Source: Cenococcum geophilum (lineage: Eukaryota). Taken from it: a DNA stretch of 64,000 nt. The position numbers were made by a program, and so were the translations under genes. The stretch's first letter is position 1. Each line of letters starts with the position of its first letter. Location: assembly GCA_050273025.1 (NCBI GenBank), contig CP158635.1:20894001-20958000 (forward strand), in the 5' to 3' direction. Of the stretch, positions 2,957 to 64,000 are shown in pieces. Under the pieces are notes generated by a model. That model was not told the DNA's origin. It worked only from the letters and a program-made list of their open reading frames with translations, and did no database searches.

Positions 2957-3988
2957 TTAAACTATCGCAATTATTAGCGGGTTATTTAGTATAATTTGTA
3001 CTAAAGAAGAATAGTAAACTAAGGCTGTGTATTAACTATAGATAGTTAAACAGCATTACTAGAAAGGATAGATATCCTTTACCCTTAATTAGCAAAATCT
3101 AAGATAGGATAGGCAATGCGTAAATCTTTACAAAGATAGATCTAAGATAGGCGTACTATTAGATTAGAATTAAGGAAGGCAATAAATAGAAGGCAGCCTT
3201 TAGGTTAAAGGAAGGACTATATAAACTATTAGTTATGCAATTCGGGCTTATAAACACACTAGTAATGTTCTAAAAGCGTATTAATAATATATTAGGAGAG
3301 TACTTAGATAAGTTTATTATAGTATATTTTATTATTATTATTATCTACTTAATAATTAAGGAAGAATATAGAGAATACGTTAAATGGGTCTTAAAGAGAC
3401 TATAAGAAGAATAGATGCTAGTAGCAATTAAGAAATACAAGTTCTTTACTAGAAAGACCGATTTTATTAAATTTATTATTAAACTAGGCTAACTTAGTAT
3501 AGATCTAAAGAAGATTAAGGCTATAGTGAATTAGTAAGAACTAGAGAATATTATATAGTTAAGATTATTCTTAGGGTTTTGCAATTACTATAAAAGGTTT
3601 ATAGCGTAATAATTAAAGGATATTAAACTATTTACGTAATTAATAAAGAAAGAAGAACTATAAGTATAGGGGAAGAAATAATAAAAACTATTTAAAAAAG
3701 TTAAAGGGTTATTTACCTAGGAGCCAGTTCTTAAAATCTATTAACTAGGTCTAGAGACGGTTATAAAGACAAATATATTAAACTTTATATTAGGGGTATA
3801 CTTTATATAGAAATATTTAGACGGATGGTACTTAGTAGTATACTATAGTTGGAAAATAACACTACTAGAGTTAAACTATAACATTTATAATAAGGAGTTA
3901 TTAGGTATAATTATAGTATTAAAGGAATAAAGAGCATTCTTATAAGGTATAGAGAAACTATTTATAATTAAGACGGATTATAAGAACT

Positions 3989-6130
3989 GAATATTCACCA
4001 CACATGCAACCTTACCAAAAGGTGGCGCCGCACTTCAAAACTTACGCATACCCATCTTACCATCAAAAACAATCGATTTCCTAACTTTTAAGACCTAATT
4101 CTCACTGCCTAGCGAGCTAGAGGTGGATTTATTTGTCGTTTTACCCCCTTTTCCCCAGCAGAAAATTCTTCTTAGGGGTGGTCCTAGCTTATAAGCGAGG
4201 CACGGACAGGAACACCAAAACTACAACTACTACTACGAATACTAATAGGGGCTAGTCTTTCTACTACCTTTTAGCCTAATCTCCCCAGAAATCTTCTAGT
4301 AGGATTAGTAAGGAGAAAGGGTATAAAGATAGTAAAAACTAGAAACCCCCCTATAAGATATAAAATGCCAAGGCCTAATAGGTCTAAAAAAAAACCTCCT
4401 ATAGAAATAAGTGATGAAGATTCTACATCTACTTTTTCTCCCCCTTCTCCTTCTCCTGGCCCGTTTAGGACAGGAGAAAAAAGAGGACATCCTCAGTCTT
4501 CTCCTAAAAAAGAAAACCAAAAACCTGCAAAAAAGATAATAAAACTAACAACTACTACGGATAGTATGCCTAGTATACCTCCGTCTTCCCTTTCTCCGGA
4601 AGAACATCTACACGAGGCTTTAAGAAGCCTAATCCAGGCCTATAGAGGGCTAGAAGGAGAAGAACAAGAAGAACAAGTTGGACAGCTAATGGACTATACA
4701 CACAATATCCTAATAGGAAAAAACCCCTTTGCAAAAGAAGAAGAAGAAGAAGAGGCAAAAGAGGTCCTAGAAGGACTAGTAGAAGAAGTAAAAGCTCTCC
4801 GTAAGGAGGTAGCTTCTACTAAAAATACTTACGCAGAGAGACTGAAGAAGGACCTCCCTTCTTTTTCGTCCTCCCCACCCTCCTCACCATTACCACCACT
4901 ACCTTCTACCCCTTCTTCTTCTAGTAGGGGTTCTACTTCTACTAGAAGTAAGAAAAAGCAGCTATAAGAAAGGAAACTAGTCCTAATTACAGACGAAAAG
5001 GACCAACCTCTAGATACCTTCTCTATACGAAATAAAGTCAATCAACTATTTGCATCAAAACTGCAAGTAAAAAAGCCAGTTCTAGCGTCTATAGCTAGAA
5101 CTAAAGGAAAACAAAATATTCTCCTTACGACTACAGAAGAGTATAATGCAGATTTCCTAGTCAAATATAAGGAGATCTGGCATAACTGCTTTACCTTTTA
5201 AAGAGAACAAAAACTAGAACCATGGGTTCAAATTATAGCCCATGGGGTTCCTACCCTACCTTTCCTAGGAGAAGGAGGCTCTAAGCTTCTAAAAGAAGAG
5301 ATTGAGACCTTTAATCCTATAAGGATACAAGGACTACCTAGATGGATCTTATCTAGTGAAAAAAGACACAATCCACAGACCAGATTTGGCTCTATAGTTT
5401 TTACTATAGAGAACGAAGAAAAAAGACAAGAAATCCTTAAGCAAAAAGAGATATTAATTGCAGGTACAGCTACTAAGGTAGTAAAGTACCTTAAAGTCTC
5501 TCCTACTACGCAGTGTAATAGCTGCCAAAAATTTGGCCATATAGGAGACAGATGCTTTACTAGGGCCTGTAGATATTATGCGGCTGCACATCTATCTAAA
5601 GACCACTGCTGTCCTACCTGCTTAATAAGCGGTAGGCCTTGCAAGCATACCACCCCTCTTTGCATTAATTGTAAAGAAAAACACTTTGCTAATAGTAGAG
5701 ACTGCGAGAATCTTAGAGCAGCTAAATTAGTACATAGTACTAGCGTAGAAGACTCTATGGAAGAATAAAATTAATAGAAGTCTAGAAGGAGGTAACTCCT
5801 ACTAGGCTTTTAGGTTAAAAGACAGTAGAGAGCAAAAGGACAGAAATAAATTGCAAAAGGACAGGGACAGGGGTTAGGATTTCTTACAGTTTTTCTTACC
5901 ATTTTCTCATTCCCTAGTAGTTGTAGTATCTTAGTATTTTTACTAGGAAACTATAAACTCCTAATTTAGGGGTTTATAAACTACTAGGATATAGCTACTA
6001 GTACATATTAAGCTGCCCCAAAAAGGATTTATGTATATAGAACTATAGCGCCATAGCCCAGAGGCTGCATGCGCAGTATTGTACGTAGTATAATACAATG
6101 GATAAAAAAAAAAAAAAAAAAAAAAAAAAA
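3989..6130 (+). mobile_element. Non-autonomous LINE derivative carrying only ORF1, with poly(A) tail
   Basis: 13-bp TSD gattataagaact (3976-3988 / 6131-6143) and poly(A) ~6104-6130. The 3' ~330 nt match the LINE end at ~28780-29130. Confidence 0.92.
4365..5768 (+). pseudogene. LINE ORF1 (gag-like, three C-terminal zinc-knuckle-like motifs), one RIP stop at 4965-4967
   Basis: ORF 4365-4967 continues in frame past TAA (from CAA) to CNSCQKFGHIGDRC, CRY(C)AAAHLSKDHCC and CINCKEKHFANSRDC, with stop at 5766-5768. Confidence 0.88.
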
Positions 6131-7809
6131 GATTATAAGAACTTAATAGGATTCCTAATAATAAAGGAACTTAACTAAAAACAGGTTAGATAGGTAGAGA
6201 TATTTATAAAATACTATTTTAAAATTTAGTATACTAAGGGTATAGATAATACGCGGGCTAATGCGTTAAGTTAAAAGGCTAAACTATAAAATAATAAAAA
6301 GCCATTAAGGGCTTTACTACGAAAAGATATAAATAGGTTAATTAAATATAATTATTTAAAGATCGCAGCAACTTAGGAAAATAAGTTAGATAGAATTTAT
6401 AAGTTACTAAAAAGCTTTTAGGTATAGAAAATTCTAAAAGTATAGCTAGAAGATCAATAAACGAATATATATAAAAACTAAAAAGTAAAGTATATCCTAA
6501 AAAGCATAGTAGAGTACTTTATAGAAGATTTCTATAAGGGACTAACTTAAGGATATAATAGAGCTATAGGATTAGTATTAAGACTCTAAGAGGAGTATAT
6601 TATTAATAGAATCTAAAAAATAGCTAGGAGGGTTACTAAGGAGTATCTAAATTATTAAAGAAATAAACTAATAAGGCATAAACTATATAGAGGGCTATAA
6701 CCTATTAAAATACCGAAAAGACTATAGGAGGTCATATTATGGGACTTTATTATTAAGTTACTAAAATTAAGAGATCCTATTATAGGATAAGATTATAACG
6801 CGATCTTAATAATAGTGGATAAACTTATAAAGTAGGGATACTTTATAGCGTGTACAGAAGAAATCTTAGCGGAAGATATCGCTAAAATCTATATTAAAGA
6901 AGTGTTTGTAAGATATAGAGCACTAAGTAAGATTATATCGGATAGGGATTTAAGATTTATAGCAGTATTTTAGAAGGTATTCTTAGCAGAGTAAGAAGTT
7001 TAAGTAGTAACTTCTACTATATATTATCCGCAGACAGACGGTTAAATAAAAAGACTAAATTAGACACTAGAGTAGTATTTAAGGCACTATATTAATTACG
7101 CATAGAATAATTAGGTATTATTATTACTAGTTATATAATTTGCATATAATATAACACCTTAAAAAGGAATAGGCACTTTACTATTTAAGGCAAATTATAG
7201 ATATAAGCTAAGGATATTATTATTACCACATTAAGTAAAGAAGATAAGTAGTATAGTAAAGTAAAGAATAGATATGTTAATAAATCTTTATAAGAACCTT
7301 ACGGAAATAGTAAAAGTAGTATAGTAAAGGATAAAAAGATACTATAACGCTAAGAGATCTAAGGGACTAGATCTTAAGGAGGGAGATAAAGTATGGCTAC
7401 TATACAAAAATTTTAAAAGTTAATAACTAAGTAAGAAGTTGGACTACGTTAGACTAGGACCTTTTAAAATCACATAAAGGATTTTACTAATCACGTTTAA
7501 GTTAAACCTACTAGCCAAAATAAGAATCTACCCTATATAGTATATTACAATGCTAGAGCTAGTATATAGAAATATTAAGCTGCCGGTTTATAAAGTAGAT
7601 ATATATAAAGGGCAAGAAGAAAACAAATAATAAGTTTTAAAAATTGTTAGTTATAAGGACGTAGATAATAAAATATAGTATAAAGTAAAGTGGATAGGCT
7701 ATAATAAGACTACCTAGGAATCACTAGAAAATTTAAAGAACGCTATAGGAAAGATACAGGAGTATTAAAAGAGATTAGGTTAGGTAATATTATTAAAAAA
7801 GGATTAAAA

Positions 7810-8406
7810 AAGGAGTTACTTAAGGGGGACCCAGGAGGAACAGCTACTAAACTATTTAGACTTATTTCCTTTATAGGGGAGTCCGTTCTTTCGTCACTAA
7901 GTTCCTATAAACCTTATTCTATAAGCTTCTACTCCTTAAAACAGACCTTTTTATAAACCTATTTAAGATATAGAAGATAAGTAAAGGCCAAAAGACGAGT
8001 CTTAAGGGCACGCTGTTAAGTAGCCGCAGCCTTTTACTCCGCCTCTCGCGATTAATATAACTTATTAAAGGCGCTTAAGAGCTTACTATTAAGCTTTATA
8101 GCAGTAAATTAAACACGAGACCCTATAATAAATTACTTAGGGAACTTAAAAATTATTAAAAGTTATAGGACGTGTATATTTAGCGTTAGAAATAAAGTAA
8201 ATATTATAAGATAAATAAATATTTACTTTAGTACACTCTAAATAAGAGGAAGGTTGCCAAGATAAGGGACTTACTAGCGTAATATAAACTAACCTCTTTT
8301 TCGTATAATAAGAATACGGAGATGGCATTATTTTACCTAGTAATAGTATAGCAGCAATAGTGCGAGCATATTAAACTGTAGAAGAAAGAGAAATTGCTTT
8401 AGGTAT
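7810..8406 (-). pseudogene. Antisense Zn2Cys6-like plus coiled-coil gene inside Gypsy family A 3' region (copy 1)
   Basis: Two-copy consensus with 42985-43576 gives a C-x2-C-x6-C-x13-C-x2-C-x8-C pattern. Three of six Cys codons are seen directly and three are inferred from TAT/TAC. Confidence 0.6.
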
Positions 8407-8936
8407 AATAAGTAATAATATTAACTAAATTAATTAGACGGATATTACACCTTTAGTTAACAACTTAGAGATATTTAAAATCTTTAAGGATAAAGATAGA
8501 GAGGAGGGAGATAGTATTACGGACGCTTTAAATATAATATTATAACTACTTAGAGAAGAGTTAAAAGAAGCTAGTTAGTTAATATAGGCACAGTCTAAGA
8601 TAGAGCCGGTAGAACTATATAATAAGGAATAGTAACTAAGTTATATAATATAATCTATATAATCTGTATAATCTATATAATCCGTAATAAAGTAAATAAA
8701 GTATACATACCTTACGTATAAGGAGGGTTTCCTAGGAGTACGGTTATATATTTAAAGGACCATAATCCTTACTCTAAATAGTTCTTTCCTTATAGTAATT
8801 TTCAGAATATAATTAGAGTTAATCTATTAGGCAACCACTCCACTAGTTATTATTACGTTGTTGACTTACTTGTAATACCTACACACCTAGCCTAATAACG
8901 AGCCCATCGTAGTTCTTACTATAAGGTTCCGTTATA

Positions 8937-10560
8937 GTCCCTATAAAGATCCCGTTTTTAATAACTATAAGCTGTTTATTCTAAGTATAGGTAAAACCTT
9001 AGCCGTATAAAAGGGCTATTAAAAGGAGTTAAAGAAGTAAATATATAATATATGGAATACTAAAATATAAGGCTATTTAAATTACTTACAGCAAATATAA
9101 AGGCAGAACTGTTGGTATTTAAGCATATCTTATTTATATTACGTTCTATATAGGGTCCATTTCCAGTACCCTAATAGGACCAGTTTTAGGAGCTAAGCCT
9201 AAACTATTTATTAATGCTATTTACTTCCAAATTACGTATATAAGATACTATTCCGCTATATTCCATTAAATTAATCTATAGAAGCAGCTCTCCTCCTTAT
9301 TTAAGTTCTATTTCTAAATCTTAAGTTCTATTTTACTTTAACGTTTAGTAATCTCCAGTTTACTAAGCTAATTTACATAATACTTTAGCGGAGGAATAAG
9401 TGTTTACCAAGTCCGCCCACCTAAGCCTACTTTACTATCCCACTACCCTAAAACACACGCATTAATAAACAGTAGAATATTAAGGCTGCCTAGTACTACC
9501 CCTTTTTCTTTAGCCAAGTTATGCCTAGATAACTTCCTTAGCATTCTTATCTAAAAACTACACTCCCTTCCTCTCCTTTAGAGCTTTTACTAAAACTACT
9601 ATAAGCCGCTTAACCAAACTCGTGTAAGGCAGTAAGGCTTTATATCCACTACTAGCTATATCCTTACCACCCCTCTAAGGGGTAGTTAATTAGCAGGTAA
9701 AGCGGGGTAATCCCTTTAGGCAATGTCCATATATAGACATCTTAGAGATATATAGGCTAGTAGGCTAAATAGGATCCGCTAGGCAACTAAGGTCTACTCT
9801 AATTGTTAAAGTTATATATATCACCAGGGGTTTAAGTAACTATTTAACTGCATATAAATTTCTATATAGGTAGGCTTAGTTGCTTTTACCGTCTAGCCTA
9901 AGCTATAAAGAGGATTAGTATTACTTAGCCTAGCTCTATTCTAACCACCCTAATATAATCTTAGTTTTGTTAGGCCCCTAAAGCAAGTAAGTAATCTAAG
10001 TAGGTTTACTATATAGCTAGACCTTCCAGCTTAAATAAGTTAAGGGCTCTATTGTTTTAAATAGAATGTGGGACATTATATAAGCTAATTAGGTCCTATT
10101 TATTACTTCGCGATTAAGACCTAAGGTACTCTCTTAACTTCCACTAATCTCCCCAAACTAATGTCTTTAAAAAAAGCTTAAGAGGATAGTGTATATAGGT
10201 AGTTTTAGCTATATCTTATTAAGCCACCAAGCAGATTAGAATCTTTATATATATCGCTAGCTATTATTTCTTCTCTTAGGCCTTAAGCATAGTTTCTTAC
10301 TGGGCGTAGTGGGGTTTATAGGCTAGGATTATTGTTATATCCGCTTATCTAGGTATTTAATAGCTCTATAATAGAGTAGATTGGTTGCCTTTATATTAAG
10401 TATTTAGGCAGGTAAAGCAAATTTTAAGTTAATTATAGCCGAGCTCCTAAGCCATAAAATAATAATCTATCAACTTTTTAATTAGCCCTAGGGTTTAAAA
10501 AAACGGTAGAAAATATAGGGGGGTAGAATTTGGCTTTATATAGAGGCTTAAAGTTAGTTT
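8937..10560 (-). other. RIP-degraded probable coding region of unidentified type
   Basis: A long minus-strand frame contains only TAA/TAG (RIP-type) stops and ends at a gtaagt donor-like site (~9090). No family was recognised. Confidence 0.3.
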
Positions 10561-10869: not shown

Positions 10870-11305
10870 ATACAGAGCTTCGTATAAAGCCTCCGTACGC
10901 AGAACTTTATATAGAGCCTTATACAGAGCCTCTATATATAAAGCTTTATATAGAGCTTTGTATAGAGCTTTGTATAAAGCCTTATATAAAGCCTCTATAC
11001 GTAAAGCTATATATAGAGCCTTATATAGAGCCTCGCGTAAAGCTTTATATAGAGCTTTATATAGAGCTTTATACAGAGCTTTATATAGAGCTTTATATAG
11101 AGCTTTATATAGAGCTTTATATAGAGCCTTATATAGAGCCTCTATACGTAGAGCTTTATATAAAGCCTTATGCAAAGCTTTATATAGAGCCTTATGCAGA
11201 GCCTCTATATATAGAGCTTTATATAAAGCCTTCTGTAAAGCTTTATATAGAACCTTGTACAAAGCCTTTATATATAAAGCTTTATATAGAGCTTTATACA
11301 GCCTT
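10870..11305. repeat. 12-bp minisatellite (agctttatatag)n with occasional 15-bp units
   Basis: Directly visible. It generates the repetitive ALYK/ALYR ORFs in the ORF track. Confidence 0.9.
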
Positions 11306-11314
11306 ATAGTATTT

Positions 11315-20029: not shown

Positions 20030-21408
20030 TTTTTTTTTTTTTTTTTTTTTTATATCCGATTGTATTATACTACATACAATACTGCGTATGCAGCCTCTAG
20101 GCTATGGCGCTATAGTTCTATATACATAAATCCCTTAGGGCAGCTTAACATATACTAGTAACTAAGTAAACACTCTGGCCCGTTTTAGATGCTAGGGGAG
20201 TTTTATCCTAGTATTTTGCTCTCTAATATTTAGTTTGCACTAAGGAAATAAAGAAATCCTGGCTCTTTTATCTATTTCTGCCGTATTCTGCCGTTCCTAG
20301 AGTAGAAAAAGCGCTCTAAAAGATAGATTTAGTAATATTTTTGCATATAAAAACAAAGGGCTCTATATAGTTTGCCAGCTTAGAGACAACTACCAGTTAT
20401 TCCTATACAACTTTTTTTGGTAATGTGACCTATTTCTTCTCCTTGCTTAAGAATAGGTAGGGAATTAGTAATTAATAGCTACTCTTCCCAAAAGTAGGCT
20501 ATTAATCCTAGATTTACGTTCTAGAAAACGGGTATTTTATAAGGGCGAACCTTGCTATATAAACCCACCCTAAAAGGAAAATTTTTCACAAGGTTGTCTT
20601 GTATAGGTTATAAACACCAATTCGCCTATACACCTTATATTTTACGTGCTAAAGTAACACAGGCCGGCCCCTTTCCCCCTACTATAGCTACCCTAGCAGT
20701 GCATCGTCTGCGGTGCCTCTGCTATGCGCCTGCGGTGCCTCTGCCATACGCTTATAGTATAGTAATTGCCTACAGCGCGACAGCTATAGACTAGTTATAG
20801 GGGATGAGGTCGTCTGCTCTATGGCAGACTGGTTATAGGGGAGGAGGTCGTCTACTCTGTGGCAGACTTATTGTAGGGGAGGAGGTCGTCTACTCTGTGG
20901 CAGATTCGTTATAGGGGAGGAGGTCGTCTACTCTATAGCAGATTCGTTATAGGGGAGGAGGTCGTCTACTCTATAGCAGATTCGTTATAGAGGAGGTCGT
21001 CTGCTCTGTGGCAGATTCATTATAGAGGAGGTCGTCTGCTCTATGGCAGACTGGTTGTAGGGGAGGAGGTTGTCTGCTCTGTAGCAGACTAATTGTAGAC
21101 AGGGTCGTCTGCTCTATGGCAGACTGGTTGTAGGGGAGGAGGTTGTCTGCTCTATAGCAGACTGATTGTAGAGGGGGTCGTCTGCTCTGTAGCAGACTGA
21201 TTGTAGAGGGGGTCGTCTGTTCTGTAGCAGACTGATTGTAGAGGGGGTCGTCTGCCTTATGGCAGACTGGTTGTAGTGGAGGTGGTTAGTTGTTGTGGTG
21301 ACGCGTCGTGTGACGCGTCCTCAGGGGGTATATAATCGGCGGCGCCCCTGCGACGACGGCGGAGGAGCAAAGGGAGGCGACGGCAGAGACGAAAGGGAGG
21401 CGACGGCG
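20030..21408 (-). mobile_element. SINE-like retroposon with LINE-derived 3' tail and tandem hairpin array
   Basis: 13-bp TSD ggaggtctagggt (20017-29 / 21409-21) and poly(T) on + at ~20030-20051. 20052-20163 matches the LINE 3' terminus at ~5995-6104 and ~29020-29130. No ORF. Confidence 0.9.
20790..21280. repeat. 13 tandem 35/38-bp units each containing a 7-bp-stem, 4-nt-loop hairpin (gtctgcY-NNNN-Rgcagac)
   Basis: gtcgtct/gttgtct at 20809, 20847, 20885, 20923, 20961, 20996, 21031, 21069, 21104, 21142, 21177, 21212 and 21247. Confidence 0.9.
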
Positions 21409-36070: not shown

Positions 36071-39000
36071 TGTTACGGACGCTTTAAGTACAATATTACG
36101 ACTATTTAGAGAGGAGTTAGAAGAAGCTAGTTGGTTAATATAGGTATGGTTTAGAATGGATCCGGTAGAACTATATAACGAGGAATAGTAACTAAGTCAC
36201 GTAATGTAATCTATATAATCTGTACGATCTATATAATCTGTAATAGAGCAGATAGAGCACGCGTACCTCACGTATAAAGAGGGTTTCCTAGGAGTACGGT
36301 TATGTATTTAAAGGACCACAGTCCCTACTCTAGATAGTTCTCTCCTTATAGTAATTCTTAGAATACAATTAGAGTTAATCTATTAGGTAACCACTCTACT
36401 AGTTATTATTACGTTGTTAACTTACTTATAATACCTATACACCTAGCCCAATAACGAGCCCACCGTAGTTCTTACTATAAGGTTCCGTTACACAATTACT
36501 ACCTAGTTATGGTTTTAATAAGTTAAACAATATGCCACCAAAAGCAGCCACTATAACGCCATTAACGGCGGCAACTACTTTAAGGTCAGGAGGCGACACT
36601 AGTATAGCAAATACTAACTCGTAACAACCTATAACGGTTAAATAACTATAAGAAATAGTTAACTAGTTAATAGAGAATAATATAACGCTTAAATAAAGGA
36701 TTAATGGGATAGGAGCAGTAAAGGTTAAGTTACTATTAATTAAAAGATTCTTAGGGGAGAGATTAAAGCTTAAAGGATTCCTTACGCAAATGCACTTTAA
36801 GGTTATATAGGAAGGAGCAAAGCCGGCAATACCTATAGATTGAATAGCTTATGCGGGATTATTCCTATTAGGAAGAGCACTTAAATAGTTTAAGCCTTAC
36901 CTTATAGAAATATAGGTAAATGGAATAACAACTACTAACTAAGAGGTGCGGTTCATATTCTTAAGTTAGGAGGAATTTATAGAGCAACTTATACAAATAT
37001 TCAGAGATCTGGAGGCAGTAACTATAGCGGAAAGAAAACTCTAAAACATTATATAGCGAACCTTAGTAATTAAGTACATAATATAGTTCTAAACGCTAGC
37101 TATATAAGTTAAGTAGAATAATAAGGCGTTTATGGCACAGTATAAATAGGGACTTAAGGCTAAAGTCCAGGACGTAATTATTCTAATAAAAGATACGAAC
37201 ACCCTAAGGGAGTTAATAAATTAAGCAATAAAGATTAATAATAGGATTTACTAAAGGGAATAGACTAAGAAAGGTTAGAATAGAGTTCTACAGTTATATA
37301 AGGCGCAGAGTACGTAATAACTAAAGCTAAGTTAGAAACTATAGTATAGCGTAGACCTAATAGACCTAAGTAGCACTAAAGAAACCTATAAGAGATGGAG
37401 TAAGAAATTATAAAAACCTAGAGGTTAAGGATCTAGTAATTATAGGACTAAGGAGTAAAGGCTAAACCAGGGATTTTAGTAGCAGAAGACGTTTAGGCGG
37501 ACTCTATAGTAAAGTTAATAGTTTAAAGACGGAGCTTATATAAATTGCGGAAAATAAGGTTACTCTATAAGGGATTATAAAGATAGTTAGAGTTACTATA
37601 TAATAAAGGGAACCTAATTAGTAGAAGACATATATGTATAAAGGAATAATAGTATACTATAAGGAACAAAAGAATATTTAATTAAAAGTTTTGCGTTTTG
37701 TTATAATAACGCATGCTAAATTTATAAAAACGCTAAGTATAGCGTAAGCTATTAGCTATAAGAGCTAGAGTTAAAAGGACTTAGAGGAACTAGAGAGTTA
37801 AATAAAGAATAAAATTAACTCTATAAGCTAGATTAAGATATTATAGTAATATACGGACAATAATTAGTAATAATAATAATGGAATTAGAGTATTTATTAA
37901 TTAATAGCAATAAGGACAATAAAGGAATTAACTAGGGGTATCTAAACCTTAATAACGCAATTATAGAAGTAGAGACTAAGACCGCTATAGAGCAAGGTTT
38001 AGTAACGGGCATTATAATACCGTTAAATACAGCATCTATTACTTTATAAGACGGAAGGAGTAGTATCTAAAAGAGATTAAGCAAGCAGACAACTGCTAGT
38101 GCTAGCTTACTACTTAATAAAGGCAAAAGGCCAAAGGCTTAAGATTTTTAAAACAAGATAAGAGAGATCCAAGATTCTAAAGATAGGATAAGAATAGCTT
38201 AAGGACCTATAATAGACAACAACCGATAAAGCAGAGCAGTAGCTTAGTTTAAAGATATATAAACAAGCTTGGGATAGAGATTCCTAGAGACATAAGATTC
38301 TTAAGACGAAATAAGTAAGATTTAAGACTCTTAAGACGAGATAAGAATACTATAGACGCCTAGTTAGATTAAGGCGGGAGTAAAGCTTAAGATAAAAGCG
38401 AGCTTAGGATTAAAGAATCTAAGGGACTAAGAATTTAGAGTATAAATAAGGACACCTATAAATAAGAAGCGCGAAGCTTTATTATAGATTAGAGAATCTA
38501 TAATATAAACAGCAGTTAGACTAGGAGATAAATATATAGACTTAGAGGATTTATTAAGTAAACTAGGGGTTTAGCTTAAAGATCGAAAGTTTAATACCAA
38601 GATTAAGAAGCAGGAAGACTTTGAGGATCTACTTATAAGACGTGAAAAAAAAGAAACTATAGCAGAATTTAGAGCAAGAATTGCTATATAGTAAGAATAG
38701 AAACTAGATAAGAGATCTAGTATATTAGGACGTATAAGGGACAGAGTACCCGTACGGAAGGTTACTAATAGGCCTAAGACAGGCACACTAAGAGCTAAAT
38801 GGCTTACTAAACTAAAATAAGAAGAGGATCTAGGGATTTTAACTAGGTTTAAGGAATAACATATAAAAAGCTATTACGACGCAGTAATGGGAAGATACTT
38901 CCTTATAGACGAGTCGTACACACTTAAAGGGCTGTACTAAAAGTAGTATAGATAACGACATAACGATAAGTGGGAAGATTTCTATATATAGTTGGATAAA

Positions 39001-42000
39001 AAAGTTGTCTAGGACCACCCGATCACGGAAAAGGCTATAACTTATATTAAAGGAGCCTTAATTATAACGTTAAAAGATCTAAAGGAGCAATTAGAGGACT
39101 AGAGAAGTAAAAGGTAAATCTTAGTACCTGCAAACGAAGTTGCAACACTTAGATTAATATAAGAAAGGTTTAAACTTAAGGATAAAGACAAGCTAAGAGT
39201 TAACCTAAGACACTAAGCACATTACACGTTAGCATAGATCGTATATATAGATAATGCGTGTAATATGCATAGAGCACTAAAAGATAAGAATTGGAAATAT
39301 CTAGTAAGGATATAGTAGTTAGCAGATAAGGCGAAATACTAAAACGCTAAGTATATGCATAGTTAGCACCTAGTAGAAGTTTAAGAATAAGGGGACTTAA
39401 TACTTTAACTAGAAAGATTCCTTATAGAAGAATACCTAGACGGATAATAGTGGTATAAATGTCCTAAGAATACGTATCTATAGCATATTAAAGATAAAAA
39501 GCGAACTAAGTATTGGCCTAAGTTAGACTAAGTATAAATAGGATCTAGTGGCTAGTAGTTAGGAAAAGTAGAGGCCTATAAAACCAGAGGGAACTAGTAG
39601 TAAAGCCTTAAACCCTTAAAGGAATTTAAGGAAAATACCTAAATTTACGAGTTAAATGGCAAGATTAACAGTTTGAGGTATTAATAGATAGTAAAGCAAT
39701 AAGGAACTATATCTTACTAGTAGCAGTTAAAAGAATAGGGTTACCGCATAGGAAAAAGGAATGTCCTTATTTATTAGTAATAATTTTAGGAGATCTAATA
39801 GCCTATGGAGGAGGTATTATTAATCTTAAAACAGGACCTATTTAGTTAACTATTAAAGGGAGATAAATTGAGATGTCTTTTAATATATTACTATTAGGGA
39901 ATAATAAGGTAGTATTAGGAATGCCTTAGTTATAGGAATATAATTTAAAGATTAATTGGGTTATAGGTTAGGTCAATATTAAGGATACTTAACGCCGTAA
40001 GATGTAATAATAAGCCAAAATAGTATGGTACTAAGTAGGAGCGACCTACGAGAAAATAGAAAAAGGGCTAAGCTATGTACTAAAGAGATACCACAAGTAT
40101 AGCAAGAAACTATAGTTATTAGAAAGTAAAAAGCTATTAGAGTATACAGTATAGGACTATAGGATAGAATTAGAACTAGAAATAAGTCTAAGGTTCTTTC
40201 CAATCTATAAGCTTATTAAAGAAGAAGGTAGAGCATTAAAAGAGTTTATCTAAGAGAACTTATAAAAGGGATATATTAGACTATTGTAATTATTAGCGGG
40301 TTATCTAATACTGTTTGTACTAAAGCAGAATAATAAATTAAGGCTGTATATTAACTATAGATAGTTAAATAGCATTACTAGAAAGGATAGGTATCCTTTA
40401 CCCTTAATTAGCAAAATCTAAGATAGGATAGGTAATGCGTAAATCTTTATAAAGATAGATCTAAGATAGGCGTACCATTAGATTAGAATTAAGGAAGGTA
40501 ATAAATAGAAGGCAGCCTTTAGGTTAAAGAAAGGACTATATAAACCATTAGTTATACAATTTAGGCTTATAAACGTACTAGTAATATTCTAGAAGTGAAT
40601 TAATAATATATTAGGAGAACACTTAGATAAATTTGTTATAGTATATCTTAACGATATTATTATCTATTTAATAACTAAGGAAGAATATAGAGAGTACGTT
40701 AAATGGGTTTTAAAGAGACTATAAGAAGAATAGATGCTAGTAGCAATTAAGAAATGCAAGTTCTTTACTAGGAAGACTAATTTCATTAGATTTATTATTA
40801 AACTAGGCTAACTTAGTATAGATCTAAAGAAGATTGAGGCTATAGTAAATTAGTAAGAACTAGAGAACGTTACGCAGTTAAGATTGTTTTTAGGGTTTTG
40901 CAATTACTATAGAAGGTTTATAGCGCAATAGTTAAAGGATATTAAGCTATTTATACGGTTAATAAAGAAAGAAAAACTATAGGTATAGGGAGAAGAGTAA
41001 TAAGAACTGTTTAAGAAAGTTAAAAGGTTATTTACCTAGGAACTAGTTCTTAAAATCTATTAACTAGGTCTAAAGACGGTTATAAAAATAGATGTATTAG
41101 ACTTTGCACTAGGGGTATACTTTATATAGAAATATTTAGATAGATGGCACCTAGTAGCATACTATAGTTAAAAAATAACACTACTAGAGTTAAACTATAA
41201 TATCTATAACAAGGAGTTATTAGGGATAGTTATAGCATTAAAGAAATAGAGGGCATTCTTATAAGGCATAGAAAAACTATTTATAGTTAAGATAGATTAT
41301 AAGAACCTAACAGGATTCCTAATAATAAAGGAACTTAATTAAAGATAGGTTAAATAGGTAGAGATACTTATAGAATACTATTTCGAGATTTAGTATACTA
41401 AGGGTATAAATAACACGCGGGCTGATACGTTAAGTTAAAAGGCTAAACTATAAAATAATAAAAAGCTATTAAGGGCTTTACTGCGAAGAGATATAGATAG
41501 GTTAATTAGATACAATTATCTAAAAATTATAGTAACTTAAGAAAATAAGTTAGAGAAAGTTTATAAGTTACTAAAAAGCTTTTAGGTATAAAGAATTCTA
41601 GAAGTATAGCTAGAAGACCTATAAACGGATATATATAAAAACTAAGAAGTAAAGTATATCCTAAAAAGTATAGCAGAGCACTTTATAGAAGATTTCTATA
41701 AGGGATTAACTTAAGGACATAATAAAGCCACGGGATTAGTGTTAAGACTCTAAGAGGAGTATATTATTAACGGAATCTAAAAAATAGCTAGGAAGGTTAC
41801 TAGAGAGTATCTAGATTATTAGAGAAATAAACTAATAAGGCATAAGCTATATAGAGGGCTATAACCTATTAAAATACCAGAGAGACTATAGGAGGTCATA
41901 TTATAGGACTTTATTATTAAGTTGCTAAAGTTAAGAGATTCTATTACCGGATAAGATTATAACGTAATCTTAGTAATAGTAAATAAGCTTATAAAGTAGG

Positions 42001-44106
42001 GATACTTTATAGCGTATATAGAAGAAATCTTAGCGAAAGATGTCGCTAAAATCTATATTAAAGAAGTATTTATAAGACATAGAGCACTAAGCAAAATTAT
42101 ATTAGATAGAGATCTAAGATTTATAGTAGTATTTTAGGAGGTATTCTTAGTAGAGCAAGGAGTTAGAGCAGTAACTTCTACTATATATTATTGGCAAACA
42201 GACGGTTAAATAGAAAGATTAAATTAGACACTAGAGCAGTATTTAAGATACTATATTAATTACGCATAGAATAATTAGGTATTATTATTACTAGTTATAT
42301 AGTTTATATATAATATAATACCTTAAGAAGGAATAGGCACTTTACTATTTAAGGCGAATTATAGATATAAGCTAAGGACATTATTATTACCATATTAAGT
42401 AAAGAAGATAAATAGTATAGTAAAGTAAAGAATGGAGATATTAATAAATCTTTATAAGAACCTTACGGAAATAGCAAAAGTAGTATAATAAAGGATAAAA
42501 AGGTACTATAATGCTAAGAGATCTAAGGGACTAGATCTTAAGGAGGGAGATAAAGTATAGCTACTATATAAAAATTTTAAGAGTCGATAACTAAGTAAGA
42601 AGTTAAACTATGTTAGACTAGGACCTTTTAAAATTACGTAAAGGATTTTACTAGTTATATTTAAGTTAAACCTACTAGCCAAAATAAAAATCTACCCTAT
42701 ATAGTATATCGCAATACTAGAGCCAGTATATAGAGATATTAAGCCACTAATTTACGAAGTAAATATATATAGAAGGCGAGAAGAAGACAAATAGTAAGTT
42801 TTAAAGATTGTTAGTTATAAGGACGTAGATAATAAAATATAGTACAAAATAAAGTAAATAGGCTACGATAAGACTACCTAGGAACCACTAGAAAATTTAA
42901 AGAACGCTATAGGAAAGGTATAGGAGTATTAGAAGAGAATAGGTTAGGCAACATTAATAAGGAAGAATCGCCAAAGAATAAGTTACCTAAGGGGGACCTA
43001 GGAAGAGCAACTACTAAACTACTTAAAGCTATTCCCTTTATAGGTAGAGAGTTAGTTCTCTTATTACTAAGTTCCTATAGACCTTATTTTATAAGCTTTT
43101 ACTTCTTAAAACGAACCTTCTTATAAACCTGTTTAAGACGTAAAAGATAAGTAGAGGCTAGGAGACAAGTCTTAAGGGCACGCTATTAAGCAGCCGCAGC
43201 CTCCTATTCTACCTCTTGCGATTAATATAATTTATTAAAAGCGCTTAAGAGCTTACTATTAAGCTTCGCAGTAGTAGATTAAATATAAAACCCTATAATA
43301 AATTACTTAGGGAACTTAGAGACTATTAAGAGTTATAGGATATATATACTTAGCGTTAGAAACAGAGCGAACGTTACAGGACAAATAAATATTCGCTTTA
43401 GTGCACTTTAAATAAAAGGAAGGTTACTAAAATAAAGGACTCGCTAGCGCAACGTAAACTAACCCCTTTTTTGCATAACGAGAACATAAAGATAATATTA
43501 TTTCACCCAGCGATAGTATAGCAGCAATAGTGCGAGCACATTAAACTATAAAAGAAAGAGAAATTACTTTAGGTATAATAAGTAACAATATTAACCAAAT
43601 TAATTAGATAAATATTATACCTCTAGTAAATAACTTAGAGATATTTAGAATCTTTAAGGATAAAGATAAAGAGGAGGGAGATGGTGTTATAGACGCTTTA
43701 AGTATAATATTATAACTACTTAAAGAGCAGTTAGAAGAAGCTAGTTGGTTAATATAGGTATAGTCTAGAATAGATCTGGTAAAACTATATAATAAGAAAT
43801 AGTAACTAAGTTATGTAATATAATCTATATAATCTATATAATCTATATAATCTATAATAAAGTAGATAGAGCACACGTACTTTATATATAAGGAGGGTTT
43901 CCTAGGAGTACGGTTATATATTTAAAGAACCACAGTCCCTACTCTAGATAGTTCTTTCCTTATAGTGATTCTCAGAATATAATTAAAGTTAATCTATTAG
44001 GCAACCACTCTACCAGTTATTATTACGTTGTTAACTTACTTGCAATACCTATACACCTAGCCCAATAACGAGCCCACCGTAGTTCTTACTACAAGGTTCC
44101 GTTATA
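36071..44106 (+). mobile_element. Full-length Ty3/Gypsy family A, copy 2 (LTRs 36071-36492, 43685-44106)
   Basis: 422-bp LTRs and TSD ggtcc (36066-70 / 44107-11). Gag ATG 36532, knuckle (C)xNCGK(Q)G(H)xxRD(C) ~37535, protease VLIDS(G)A ~39680, RT YLNDI (YLDD) ~40645, integrase and chromodomain. Confidence 0.95.
42985..43576 (-). pseudogene. Antisense Zn2Cys6-like plus coiled-coil gene inside Gypsy family A 3' region (copy 2)
   Basis: Reads ..ARTIAAILSLGEI..CSR(C)AKKGLV(C)VALASP......(C).KCTKANI.LSCNVRSVS, then a putative intron ~43347-43293 and a helical A/E/Q/R-rich segment. Confidence 0.62.
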
Positions 44107-59386: not shown

Positions 59387-61016
59387 ATGGCTCTCGTTAA
59401 TCCGCTCTTTAAGCGTATCTAAACGCTATGGAACTCCGCTTAGGCATAAGCATAGGGACCTCTTGTATTATTATCCAGGACCGCAGTGCTATCTTATTCT
59501 AAAGTATTAAGTTCGGCCGTCTAGCAATATACAACGGCGATTTAGAAGAGGCTTTAGCCATTTACGGAAATCTAAAAGCGCAGCCTAGTTACCCGGTGGT
59601 ACTTCTACGCGTTCACAATAAGAAGTTCTAGTTTCGACTAGTACTCTTAGCTAATATAGTATATTAGCTACTCTACATCTCTATGTTTAGAATGCTTCGG
59701 TAATCGTACCCAATTACTATATAGCTCCGGAAAGGAAATCGAGAACACCAGAATTAAGGCAGTGGTATACGTTTAGACGTGGCTATTGCTTCTAGAGCTA
59801 TTATAACTGCTCTTTAAAGCATATCTAGTATACGAATTCTTTTAACATAGGCCTTGTAATGGTTGGATTATAGGCTAATAAAACGCAGGTCTTTTTAGAA
59901 AGCTATATACTTAAAGAAGTATTCTATCTAGATCTAACCGAGTTCTTTAAAGTAAAGTCCTGTGACTCTAGCTGTAATGCTTCAACCGCTTACAAGCCCT
60001 ATAACCTTTCGTTTTTAACCGCTTCCAACTATCCAATGGTTTTACACTCACTTCCACTATAAGCAACAGCTTTGTAGGAATAGCCTAAAGAAGCAACAGC
60101 CTTAAAAACGCCGAGCTCAACGTCAGCGCCCACTACGACAGCAACGACATGTTCTCCGCCTTCCTCTCCCCAGACATAACATGCTCGTGCCCGATATGGC
60201 TGCCCAAATCCGACCCCCGCTCCGCCACTAAGTCGCTTAAAGACGCTTAGAGGCACAAACTGCAGCGCTTTATTAATATACACACACCAAGCCAACTAAC
60301 CACGTCCTCGAGATTAGCACTGGCTAGGGCAGCTTCGCCACCCAAGCCGTGTAGTAGACTGGCTGCACCGTAGCCACCACAACGCTTAGCCCCGAGCAGC
60401 GCATCCGGGCCGCAGGACTCGCGGATGGAATCACCGTGCAGCAGACCGACTACCGCGACCTCCAGACCCCAACCACGAGGTCCTATGACAAGATCATCAG
60501 CATCGAGATGCTCGAGGCGGTCGGCGCGGCACACCTAGAAACCTACTTCGCCGGCATCGACCGCCTGCTGAAGCGCGACGGTGGGGTGGTGGTCTTCCAG
60601 TGCATCACGATCCCCAACGCCCGCCACGCCGCCTACGCCCGCTCCGACGACTTCATCCGCCGCTGCATCTCCCTCGGCGGCCACCTGCCCGCCGTCACGC
60701 GGCTGGTCTCCGCCATCGCGGCCGGCTCGCGCGGCGCCCCGTCGTCGACGGCGTCGAGAATATCGGCTCGCACTACGCGAAGGCGACGCGGCTGTGGCGC
60801 GAGGCGTTCCTGCGCGAGTTCGGCGCGGAGGTCCGGCCAGCGCTTCGGCACGAGCATGCGGGGATGGGGGAGCGGGACATGGAGGTTTTCAGGAGGAAGT
60901 GGGAGTGCTGTTTTGCGTATTCGGAGGCCGGGTTCGCGACAAGGACACTGGGCGATGTTGTGGTTACTGTAACGAGGGAGGGCGTGGCGGAGTTGATGGA
61001 GGATGTGCAGTTGTAA
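59387..61016 (+). pseudogene. Cyclopropane-fatty-acyl-phospholipid synthase-like SAM methyltransferase pseudogene (stops, frameshift, deletions)
   Basis: (W)GPLV..SRTAVLS, LRVHN.KF(W)FRL, NVSAHYD.SNDMFSAFLSPD, HVLEI(G)TG*GSFA, YDKIISIEMLEAVG, ENIGSHYAKATRLWR and FRRKWE..FAYSEAGF. Confidence 0.88.
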
Positions 61017-61853
61017 TTTAAACACCCACCGAGCGTGCCTAGGGACTTTTGCTCTTGCTCGCGCTCTCGCCTGAGAGCCCTTTCCACGCTTGCGATTTGC
61101 GATTTGCTGAGTCTAGTGGCGTAGGGCCGAGTCAAGGTTGTTTATCGAGACGGGGAGGGGGGCGTCCTGGTGATTTTGCCCAAAGTCGGCTGGATGTCAC
61201 GGTTGTGGTGGAGGGACGGCCTTGTGAGAATTGGAGTTCGGCTGGAGTATGTGCTTTGTGATGTTGATGATACCAATGAGGTAGTAGAGAGCGTTGTGAT
61301 GAATTAGATTGTCTTCACCCTTAAGACTTGCTTTAGGGTTTTTAATAAGTGCTATAAGGGGTAAGAATTTATGGAATGCTAGAGATGCTAGGGGTATCCG
61401 GCTATAAAGAAGAGGACTGGTATTATAGAAGTAGATCTTAGGAGCGTATTACGCGAACTCGCGGTTGAATTGTTCTATTTAATTAGATGATTTTGCTCCT
61501 TAATATCTCGTACGTAGTAACCCTATTCATGATCATAGACAGAATCTCAATCCACCTTACGGCCGTCCATTTCTCCTATTAACATAAAGCTCTAGTTCTC
61601 TTAGCGTAGATTCGCCCCTCCTCCTACTTAACGTTACAGATAGCCCAATATCGACTTCTTACTAGTGCTGCGCCGGAGACATCTGTGGTGCTTCTCCTAG
61701 TCTCCGTAAACTCTGGTATAGTTTGCTTGTCCAATTCTCTTAGAACTTTCTCTAGCGGTCTCAAAGTCCCGAAAAATCCAGTTCTAGACTCGACCCTAAC
61801 TTCCGTCTTATAGCATTTCTGCTCTCCATACAATATCCACTTTACTCCCTCCC

Positions 61854-62828
61854 TTACTTCTTTCCCTTCCTCCTCTTCTTCTTCTTCTTCTTTTTCTTCT
61901 TTGCCTCCCCATCCCCCTCCCCTCCCTCCTCCTCCCCACTCCCCTTCCCCTTCTCCTCCCTCGGCCTCCTAAACCGCTTAAAAACCTCCCTCTCAAACCC
62001 CTCCTTCTCCCCCCGAAACAGCGCTATCGCCACCCTCGCATCCTCCACACTCGAATACATCCCACACTAAATCGTTACCCCAAGCACCCTCTCCGCCAGC
62101 TCCCGCAACGCGGGCGTCCTCCCCACGCTTAGCGCCCGAAACCCAGGATACCGCGCCGTATCCCGGACATACCATTTCGGATGCACGAGCAGCAGCGCCG
62201 CGAGATCGTGCCGCAGCGCGTGCCCCACCAGGACCCTGTCCTGCAACAGCGCGGCGACCTCTTGCTAGATAACGGCGAACGGCCGCGCGCCGCTACCGGC
62301 GCGCAGGTGGTGCGGTATGATGCCAGAGATGGGCGTGCGGTAGTCGGTCACGCGGAGGACCGGCTGCACGTAGCTGTCGTAAAGCTGGTGGCCATAGTAG
62401 TTCACCAGCGAGACGCGCGCGAGTTACGAGGAGAAGGAGGGCGCCAGGCCGACACCGACCATTTCGCAGTTAAGCGCGATGTATTTGCTTACTATAGTAG
62501 TAGGGGAGAGGCCCACATTTGGGATGTCGGGGTAGTGGGGGGAGGGGGTTAGGAGAGTAAGCGGGTTAGTGGTAGTATCGTCGTCATTAGTGAGTGCAGA
62601 TGGTGAGATTGGGGTTATAGAGGGTTCCATTTTGCGTTTCTTGGAGGGTGGGAGGGTGGTAGAGGCAGGTTTGGCCAGCTTCACGTCGTTCTGGGGTACT
62701 ACAGTGTGATGCTTAGTCGAGCGCTTTAGCGGGTTCGGGGTTGGTTTTAGAGCATGTGGTTTGGGGGAGTCTTTTTAGAGCGTCCTCTGCAGCTTCTTCC
62801 AGTTGCTAGAGAGGTCCTTAAGGTCCAT
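61854..62828 (-). pseudogene. REX4: RNA exonuclease 4 (DEDDh) pseudogene with RIP stops
   Basis: MDLKDLSSNWKKLQ, KYIAL(N<-D)[42 protein letters not shown] and (H)SSVEDAR, with a K-rich tail. TAA stops at ~62775 and 62424. Confidence 0.9.
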
Positions 62829-62974
62829 AGTGGCATTGCTATGGAGACATTTTTGGTGTTGTTTCTCTAGAGAACGTTTCTTAAAGGTTTAGTAGAAATA
62901 TTTGGAGTCCATACACAGATTGGCAATGTCCTCAGTGTGGCTAACGATATAAACAGCGATCAGAAAACCATAAT

Positions 62975-64000
62975 ATGGCGTCGCGAGGCTGTCTTTCAGC
63001 CTTCTCCACTTGGATTTCGTCAGCTGCTGTGAACTCTCTTCCCTCACAATCACCTCCTCTCAAAATGGCTTCCACTTCTGTCTGGAACCCTAGTCCTCGA
63101 CTGGCAAACAACACTGTCCATCTTGATGATCTACAGATATCGTTCCAGCGCACAGTTCGAGTCCCGGATAACAAGGATACTTCAGCCTTGCCGCCTTCTC
63201 TGGGAGAGTTTCCTCTTTACGAGGTCAAGAACTATGTCAACAAGTTACCAGAGAACATGAGTGCGAAAGGAGGATTATTCATGCCACTCTATCGTAAGTC
63301 TTCTCCTACACTCTACATTACTTAGGCAGCATAGTTGTAGTTCCTGGAGTGGCATCAGTCGAGTTCTGCCCCCTTAGCATATGTCGTAGGCTAGGTTCTT
63401 GAAAGAATGCCCCTCTACCAGTTAGACCATTCTAGACGAGAGACCTTAAAAATCGGTTACGATAGTGATCCTGATATATATCATTTCCCTTTTCTTCCAA
63501 GCCATGACATATACTTCCCTAGTATCATTCTTACCACTGTCCTTACCGATTGAATAGAAAGAGAAGCTATGTGGATACGCTTTCACTCTACACGTACATA
63601 TACCATCAAGATATATGTTGGTGGAGTCAATGCCATTTCTGGAGAACCTGCAGTAGAGACCGCAGCAACAAAATTGCGACGGCAAAATTTACTCCGCCAG
63701 TCTAAGTCCATCCAAGACTACGTTGTCGTTCCAGATCAGCTTTGGCTTGATGGAATTGCCACTAGAGATGGAAATGTTCGACAGTTCGTTGCTATGGCGG
63801 CTGGAACTGGATATTCAGTGGAAGGGCAAGTCACCGGAGAGGAAGCCACCGGTGGACTGCAGTTCGAGATCACTCCTGTTGATGACATGATTGTGATCAA
63901 AATTGAAACAAACGCTTCCCCTCCCCAAACTTTGGCATGTCAAACAAGTAAAAGCGCTTCCCTTTCCACTCTAATGGATAAGCTCCAGGAAGATTTCGAG
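62975..64000 (+). CDS. Conserved fungal hypothetical protein (family often with C-terminal ubiquitin-like domain); intact, incomplete at window end
   Basis: ATG 62975 or 63065, exon to 63293, intron 63294-63557, exon 2 open to the end. Motifs ISFQRTVRVPD..LPPSLGEFPL, QREAMWIRF, YVGGVNAISGE, QDYVVVPDQLWLDGIA and GYSVEGQVTGEE..GGLQFEITP. Confidence 0.85.

Follow-up and report, generated by a model that had tools for sequence, protein, structure and literature searches.

A chromodomain Gypsy element of Cenococcum geophilum whose pol tail encloses a RIP-inactivated, two-exon antisense gene for a protein with six cysteines and a coiled coil

The window (the whole stretch analysed: 64,000 nucleotides of Cenococcum geophilum contig CP158635.1, positions 20,894,001 to 20,958,000) includes two copies of an 8.0-kb chromodomain Gypsy element. 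The element carries, antisense to pol, a two-exon gene that has been killed by RIP; both window copies of the gene are dead. It is a real accessory gene of a known kind, and both DNA strands of the region are coding at once. The original prediction of an antisense, intron-containing, Gypsy-borne gene for a protein with six cysteines and a coiled coil is borne out by the structure of intact relatives and by the linkage of the genomic copies. The further assignment to the Gal4-type clusters was not upheld, and the proposed activity as regulator or anti-silencing factor is putative.

The host element is a Ty3/gypsy chromovirus with gag, protease, RT, RNase H, integrase, chromodomain and LTRs (Pfam on the ORFs of L064, an intact natural relative; tblastn to the window). 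Copy A has 8,036 bp (36071-44106), 422-bp LTRs (5′ LTR, 36071-36492; 3′ LTR, 43685-44106; both on the plus strand) and a 5-bp target-site duplication, GGTCC just before the 5′ LTR. Its two LTRs are 43 transitions and 1 transversion apart. The RIP-broken gag region is found at 36448-39594 (plus strand; extent of the tblastn match to the L064 gag ORF). The pol frame, with RIP-type stops, occupies 39531-43805 (plus strand): protease, RT, RNase H, integrase, chromodomain and a tail of about 300 codons ending in the 3′ LTR. Residues 8-1415 of L064 pol align to 39531-43784 as a single tblastn HSP. The chromodomain remnant, placed from the window translation, has approximate limits of 42792-42910 (plus strand); L064 pol matches PF00385 at E 2.7e-08. 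The polypurine tract (43668-43684, plus strand) codes for an acidic run in the pol frame. The 3′ LTR contains the end of the pol frame and is also the likely start of the antisense RNA. Copy B is insertion-split; its 3′ LTR is at 8517-8941 (plus strand, approximate end). Its pol is interrupted at about 3986-6129 by an insert of ~2.1 kb with a poly-A end and a repeated 10-base flank, probably a LINE-like element.

The RIP signature is heavy across the repeat DNA of the window (TpA/ApT 1.5-2.1 over most of the window). Positions 60001-64000 are GC-rich, without RIP signature, and are probably host sequence. Distant Gypsy pol remnants, all on the minus strand, were found at 23143-21770, 19867-18728, 35296-34553, 44787-44107 and 50243-49719; they have 25-36% identity to L064 pol, and one abuts the right end of copy A. 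Tandem arrays occur at 20788-21287 and 10870-11308 (periods of ~38 and ~63/21 bases). The LTR includes a 9-base tandem repeat (43815-43860), ACGT-rich in the intact LTR of the relative L063 (6 ACGT per 428 bases): a candidate regulatory site.

As had been proposed for both family copies, the antisense frame is read on the minus strand from 43576 in copy A and from 8406 in copy B. In copy A, exon 1 (43348-43576) encodes a basic helix and the motif C-x2-C-x6-C-x13-C-x2-C-x8-C; its start codon is here ATA. The intron (43293-43347) has 55 nt, with a TAG acceptor and a donor that is AT in the window and GT in less mutated copies. Exon 2 (42907-43292) encodes a long helix and an acidic, aromatic tail. 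The gene had been thought to end at 42985, but the frame continues 78 bases further, to a stop at 42909-42907 that lies over the last chromodomain codons; this end is fixed by L063 and L064. The whole product of the window gene has 204 codons. The copy B gene (7743-8406, minus strand) has exon 1 at 8406-8178, the intron at 8177-8123 and exon 2 at 8122-7743. Three of the six Cys sites are retained in copy A and one in copy B; the remaining sites are Tyr. A scan of the window at E 0.01 with the profile of the wider family described below did not find a second such gene.

The source genome (178 Mb, 7 contigs) is RIP-active. Searches in it gave 2,954 candidates with DNA and 3,021 with protein, of which 40 and 150 were scored; 60 loci were fetched and, minus 2 duplicates, yielded 58 distinct copies, the best-scoring of ~3,000 candidates. 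Thirty copies were chosen through DNA alone and 28 through the protein query; the latter are biased towards Cys, because the query bore three of the Cys. TGY was found at 43486, 43477, 43456, 43414, 43405 and 43378 in 35, 19, 7, 4, 48 and 23 of the 58 copies, all others having TAY (13, 10, 6, 3, 21 and 8 TGY in the 30 DNA-chosen copies only). Three of the six cysteines had been inferred: each site carries only TGY or its RIP product TAY in 58/58 copies, and all six Cys are present in L063 and L064. The start codon is ATG in 20 copies and ATA in 38. At 43347, where a GT donor had been expected, the window itself has AT, as do 53 of the 58 copies; GT is found in the other 5 and in the intact L063 and L064. 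The acceptor is TAG in 56/58. Each departure at the Cys, start and splice sites of the 58 copies is C-to-T or G-to-A. An LTR adjoins the gene in 58/58 copies and a chromodomain in 57/58. The length of the helix differs between subfamilies through in-frame indels. When the intact L064 gene was used as the query, no copy above 76% identity was found among the 40 candidates scored out of 2,414, which suggests that the genome may have no unmutated copy left.

Intact relatives were found outside this genome. Of 511 stretches in a metagenome scan, 238 were confirmed; the scan yielded 79 loci, the majority of them in a single assembly. Where a locus leaves 1 kb of room, a chromodomain or integrase is encoded just downstream on the other strand (77/77); where it leaves 3.6 kb, RT is too (66/69). 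L063 and L064, 82% identical to each other, are without RIP signature and have the six Cys and a 55-nt GT-AG intron; their products have 209 and 197 residues. The window differs from them mainly by 128-140 C/G-to-T/A changes, versus 18-27 in the reverse direction. Three natural proteins from databases (P0001, P0002, P0020, on short contigs), which would derive from cDNA, span the predicted splice junction and read through it exactly as proposed. A scan of viral contigs did not find a relative. The gag ORF of L064 (4204-7152, minus strand) is long, with 983 codons; beyond its zinc knuckle, ~600 codons have no Pfam match. Its 91-base overlap with the pol frame suggests a frameshift.

An intron survives reverse transcription only when it is antisense, the packaged RNA being the opposite strand. 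Expression from the 3′ LTR had been proposed, and an RNA start in or beyond this LTR fits P0002, as indirect support. The first 31 residues of this protein match an antisense reading of the polypurine tract and the edge of the LTR (compared with L061:1595-1672 and L062:835-1096). About 52 bases, from a conserved AG|GT to an AG, are then skipped, and the usual start codon with them; P0002 is likely a second splice form whose first Met is just before Cys1. A site resembling this donor is also present in the window at about 43628.

The antisense gene is under purifying selection inside the element. In exon 1, the columns variable by transversion (in at least two copies) fall on antisense codon positions 1/2/3 as 5/2/24; for exon 2 the split is 16/12/39. 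The periodicity of exon 1 alone cannot separate the strands, because antisense and pol third positions coincide there; exon 2 is the discriminating part, because its antisense third positions are pol second positions. Between L063 and L064, exon 1 has 21 synonymous and 5 non-synonymous changes (dN/dS 0.09); the two blocks of exon 2 have dN/dS of 0.29 and 0.03, and the integrase control 0.06 (all dN/dS: simple counts, uncorrected for multiple hits). In one exon 2 block, the antisense frame has 10 synonymous changes and 1 non-synonymous, the pol frame 0 and 11. That the region is a pol tail only, the antisense frame being its shadow, accords with a pol frame that is truly open through the region and with the coinciding third positions in exon 1; it is already contradicted by the exon 2 block, by the spliced proteins and by a distant family with the same six Cys, and its probability is negligible. 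It is also very improbable that the element passively carries a captured host transcription-factor gene. A fungal Zn2Cys6-like motif with an intron could be so explained, but the gene occupies the same place in nearly all examined copies, is under purifying selection inside the element, and has no full-length host factor among its database matches.

Not noticed in the original prediction, the region is also coding on its sense strand: the pol frame runs through it. L064 pol is a single open frame of 1,421 codons with its chromodomain at 1092-1140. About 280-300 further codons, without Pfam match, follow the chromodomain; they cross the antisense gene with its intron as well as the polypurine tract, and the stop is ~120 bases inside the 3′ LTR; L063 pol has the same layout. 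From the end of the chromodomain to the LTR, L063 and L064 have 0 stops in the pol frame versus 5-20 in the other two frames. Among 20,000 Markov sequences, none had such an open frame; when 20,000 sequences were resampled with the antisense protein kept, 0 and 1 had it. The segment length is divisible by 3 in 156 of 164 measured cases, much of which exon indels alone would yield.

It is very probable that selection keeps this tail open. The alternative, quite improbable, is that the antisense gene is real and the open tail an unselected leftover from one ancestor. Only 10-12 of 462-489 synonymous single changes in the antisense gene would create a pol stop; since they are so few, comparing L063 with L064 is by itself hardly informative about the tail, and shared ancestry could suffice. 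A leftover would also fit the pol tail residues over exon 2, which are unconstrained, the mild dN/dS (0.40) of the sense-only tail end, and the tail of L062, open except for a one-base shift. It is opposed by relatives just 65-71% alike, which retain the pol frame and a similar acidic end. The L061 tail is open over ~275 codons including a 72-nt longer intron (5 stops versus 17 and 16 in the other frames), and the L072 tail frame has 8 stops versus 18 and 16. It is opposed further by the openness across spacer and LTR alone, expected 1.3-1.5% of the time, and by the introns. These have 55 nt in 169 of 173 measured (also one of 54 and a doubtful 28 in L120, left aside) and 61, 64 and 127 nt in distant relatives; 55, 61, 64 and 127 are all 3n+1 (chance ~1 in 27), and the pol frame is therefore kept across the intron. 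A tail dN/dS of 0.75-0.76 against L061 was rejected, because through roughly half of its block the ungapped alignment ran two codons out of register. For a tail kept open by selection, most residues follow the antisense code; the open frame, and perhaps the acidic end, are what is kept. The tail could be kept for an acidic integrase-end motif on a free linker, by analogy with the plant CRM group A, or it may serve to avoid the decay triggered by a long 3′ UTR. A literature search did not find a paper on decay avoidance for such a tail.

The product is Zn2Cys6-like and would bind zinc. The Zn2Cys6 pattern is C-x2-C-x6-C-x(5-12)-C-x2-C-x(6-8)-C; the Cys spacing of P0001 and P0002 is 2-6-13-2-8, one over this range. 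A wider family of ~190-210 residues is homologous to the antisense product (hhalign probability 98%), and its profile finds the window exon (E 1.9e-08); of the 31 proteins scanned besides P0001 and P0002, 28 have the spacing 2-6-8-2-6, and the source of one member calls it 'Zn(2)-C6 fungal-type'. Several of its members (P0103, P0108, P0109, P0110, P0118 and P0119) come from contigs of 6.5-7.4 kb, which match a collapsed LTR element in size. The six-Cys and coiled-coil part of the original prediction stands, but membership of the Gal4 type is not supported by Pfam: Zn_clus (PF00172) reaches at best 13.0-14.3 bits, under its gathering cut-off of 21, and matches at E 0.1 in only 1 of 33 family members. 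Gal4 has a basic recognition run between Cys2 and Cys3. Such a run was not found there in the family members, whose residues are AKEGLV or AEKKLV in the near family and xKHNRV-like in the wider one. The L063 LTR did not have an excess of CGG/CCG (6 versus 9.9 in shuffles).

Structure searches gave weak likenesses. The P0001 model (pLDDT 84.5, pTM 0.52) has helices at 13-27 and 77-151 and two short helices at the Cys pairs; a model of exon 1 only was poor (pLDDT 52). Foldseek with the P0001 model found no match at E 0.001; 15 of its 24 weak rows are the Zn2Cys6 factors Hap1, Put3, Gal4, Ppr1, AlcR or Pho7. VIA fold comparison to HAP1 gave Z 3.2-3.3 (rmsd 8-9). Generic coiled coils (Z 7.0-7.5) dominated the wide fold search. 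The top match of the PDB sequence search was Leu3 (E 0.066). An Atlas search with the RIP-hit exon found nothing above 0.81; the first match of another Atlas search (0.90) is in a cluster auto-named Zn(2)-C6, a lead only. The 88 matches of the HMMER library search are mostly exon 2 pieces, because the profile had lost its Cys columns.

Two copies of P0001, folded without its tail, were predicted to pair (homodimer score 0.50 versus 0.00 for the best control; pLDDT at least 77; contacts agreeing at least 91% between runs), a pass that may reflect memory of similar coiled coils. Among solved pairs, 21 of 30 attain the homodimer mark, and among single chains 0 of 23; of eukaryotic cases for which no older relative had been solved, only 1 of 7 does. 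The predicted dimer is antiparallel (residue 133 with 94, 115 with 115), which would place the Cys clusters at opposite ends of the rod. The last 60 residues of seven full-length members include 8-14 acidic and 0-4 basic ones; activation regions are likewise acidic. A Gal4-type mechanism is unproven, because the Pfam cut-off is missed, the basic DNA-reading residues are absent and the predicted dimer is antiparallel.

The most likely reading of the job of the protein, proposed from its anatomy and held with slightly less than even confidence, is a trans-acting factor in the nucleus that maintains expression of the element. In live elements, the antisense RNA would start in or at the 3′ LTR and would be spliced, as indicated by the natural proteins that span the junction; since it is the opposite strand that is packaged as RNA, reverse transcription would leave the intron in place. 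The product would have ~200 residues: basic helix, six-Cys metal cluster (putative zinc ligands), 75-residue helix predicted to pair with itself, acidic aromatic tail. The clusters would bind element DNA or chromatin and the acidic tail would recruit host machinery, so that the element stays expressed; pol would stay open into the LTR over the same bases as the antisense gene. Somewhat unlikely, the protein could instead serve as a bridging adaptor, in which both ends of an antiparallel rod bear a Cys cluster and which links element RNA, particles or integrase to host factors, or blocks a host silencing protein. The predicted antiparallel pairing, the absence of both the basic recognition residues and a CGG excess, and the variation of helix length between subfamilies by in-frame indels argue for an adaptor. 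The acidic, aromatic tail of both subfamilies argues against it, as does the weak but consistent likeness to Zn2Cys6 factors, to which the Atlas match at 0.90 adds a lead only.

The trans-acting factor would share with the Zn(II)2Cys6 factors (Gal4, Hap1, Leu3, Ppr1, Put3; PF00172) six Cys in two C-x2-C-x6/8-C halves, a pairing helix, an acidic tail, and a weak likeness of sequence and fold. It differs from them by its score below the Pfam cut-off, the 13 residues from Cys3 to Cys4, the lack of a basic recognition run, a size of ~200 residues without middle region, and a 75-residue helix predicted to be antiparallel; the Gal4 dimer is not antiparallel.

The closest known system is brtn of Boty, which is reportedly spliced and is said to be annotated with a possible Zn2Cys6 domain. 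The third ORF of CfT-1 is also said to be a parallel; a literature search on this ORF found nothing. No database match of the present gene is named BRTN, and most matches are nameless. Like brtn, an antisense gene of Boty-like elements of Botrytis (Zhao et al. 2011, PMID 21802103; cited in PMC8365987, PMC7264820, PMC4227169, PMC5987419), the gene is an additional antisense gene that a fungal Gypsy element with a chromodomain bears at its 3′ end. Its ORF adjoins the 3′ LTR downstream of the pol domains, as in the brtn type, but is nested in the pol tail and not after a pol stop. In the available part of the review PMC7264820, such antisense genes are put between pol and the 3′ LTR; unlike that placement, the present one is wholly inside an open pol tail. 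The same part of the review mentions the plant antisense ORFs Grande gene23, RIRE2 and Retand: family-wide, near the 3′ LTR as here, with a regulatory role proposed; they belong to plant elements, their description there reports no Cys cluster, and the likeness is one of descriptions only. The plant CRM group A chromoviruses, in the available part of Neumann et al. 2011 (PMC3059260), share a polyprotein frame that enters the 3′ LTR, but they have a CR motif in place of a chromodomain, whereas here a PF00385 chromodomain (E 2.7e-08) is followed by 300 codons overlapping a second gene.

An antisense gene at such a position is thus already known from brtn; the nested, double-coded layout is a new detail, not found described. 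A literature search turned up no description of a pol tail that overlaps an antisense gene in fungi; Zhao 2011 and the element maps of Porquier 2021 (Fig. S1) may bear on this novelty. An accessory gene of the brtn kind, overlapped by pol and with a regulatory role in the broad sense, is probable. The reading in its full form is unlikely to hold as a whole: a fungal Gypsy lineage with a fully double-coded 3′ end, whose spliced antisense gene would encode an antiparallel Cys-cluster rod that is not of the Gal4 type. The rod would serve the element itself as a counter-silencing or trans-activating factor and would belong to a wide, unnamed, element-borne family. This gene would be nested in an integrase tail held open to the LTR, either because the tail carries a motif for acidic targeting or because a 1-kb 3′ untranslated region would otherwise expose the genomic RNA to nonsense-mediated decay.

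The nested layout, in which the length of an intron is bound by the reading frame of the opposite strand, provides a clean overlapping-gene constraint in a eukaryotic element. With ~3,000 candidate copies in a 178-Mb RIP-active genome, the antisense protein belonged to a very successful element. We know of no function for the accessory genes of fungal LTR elements; the intact natural relatives supply a protein that can be tested.
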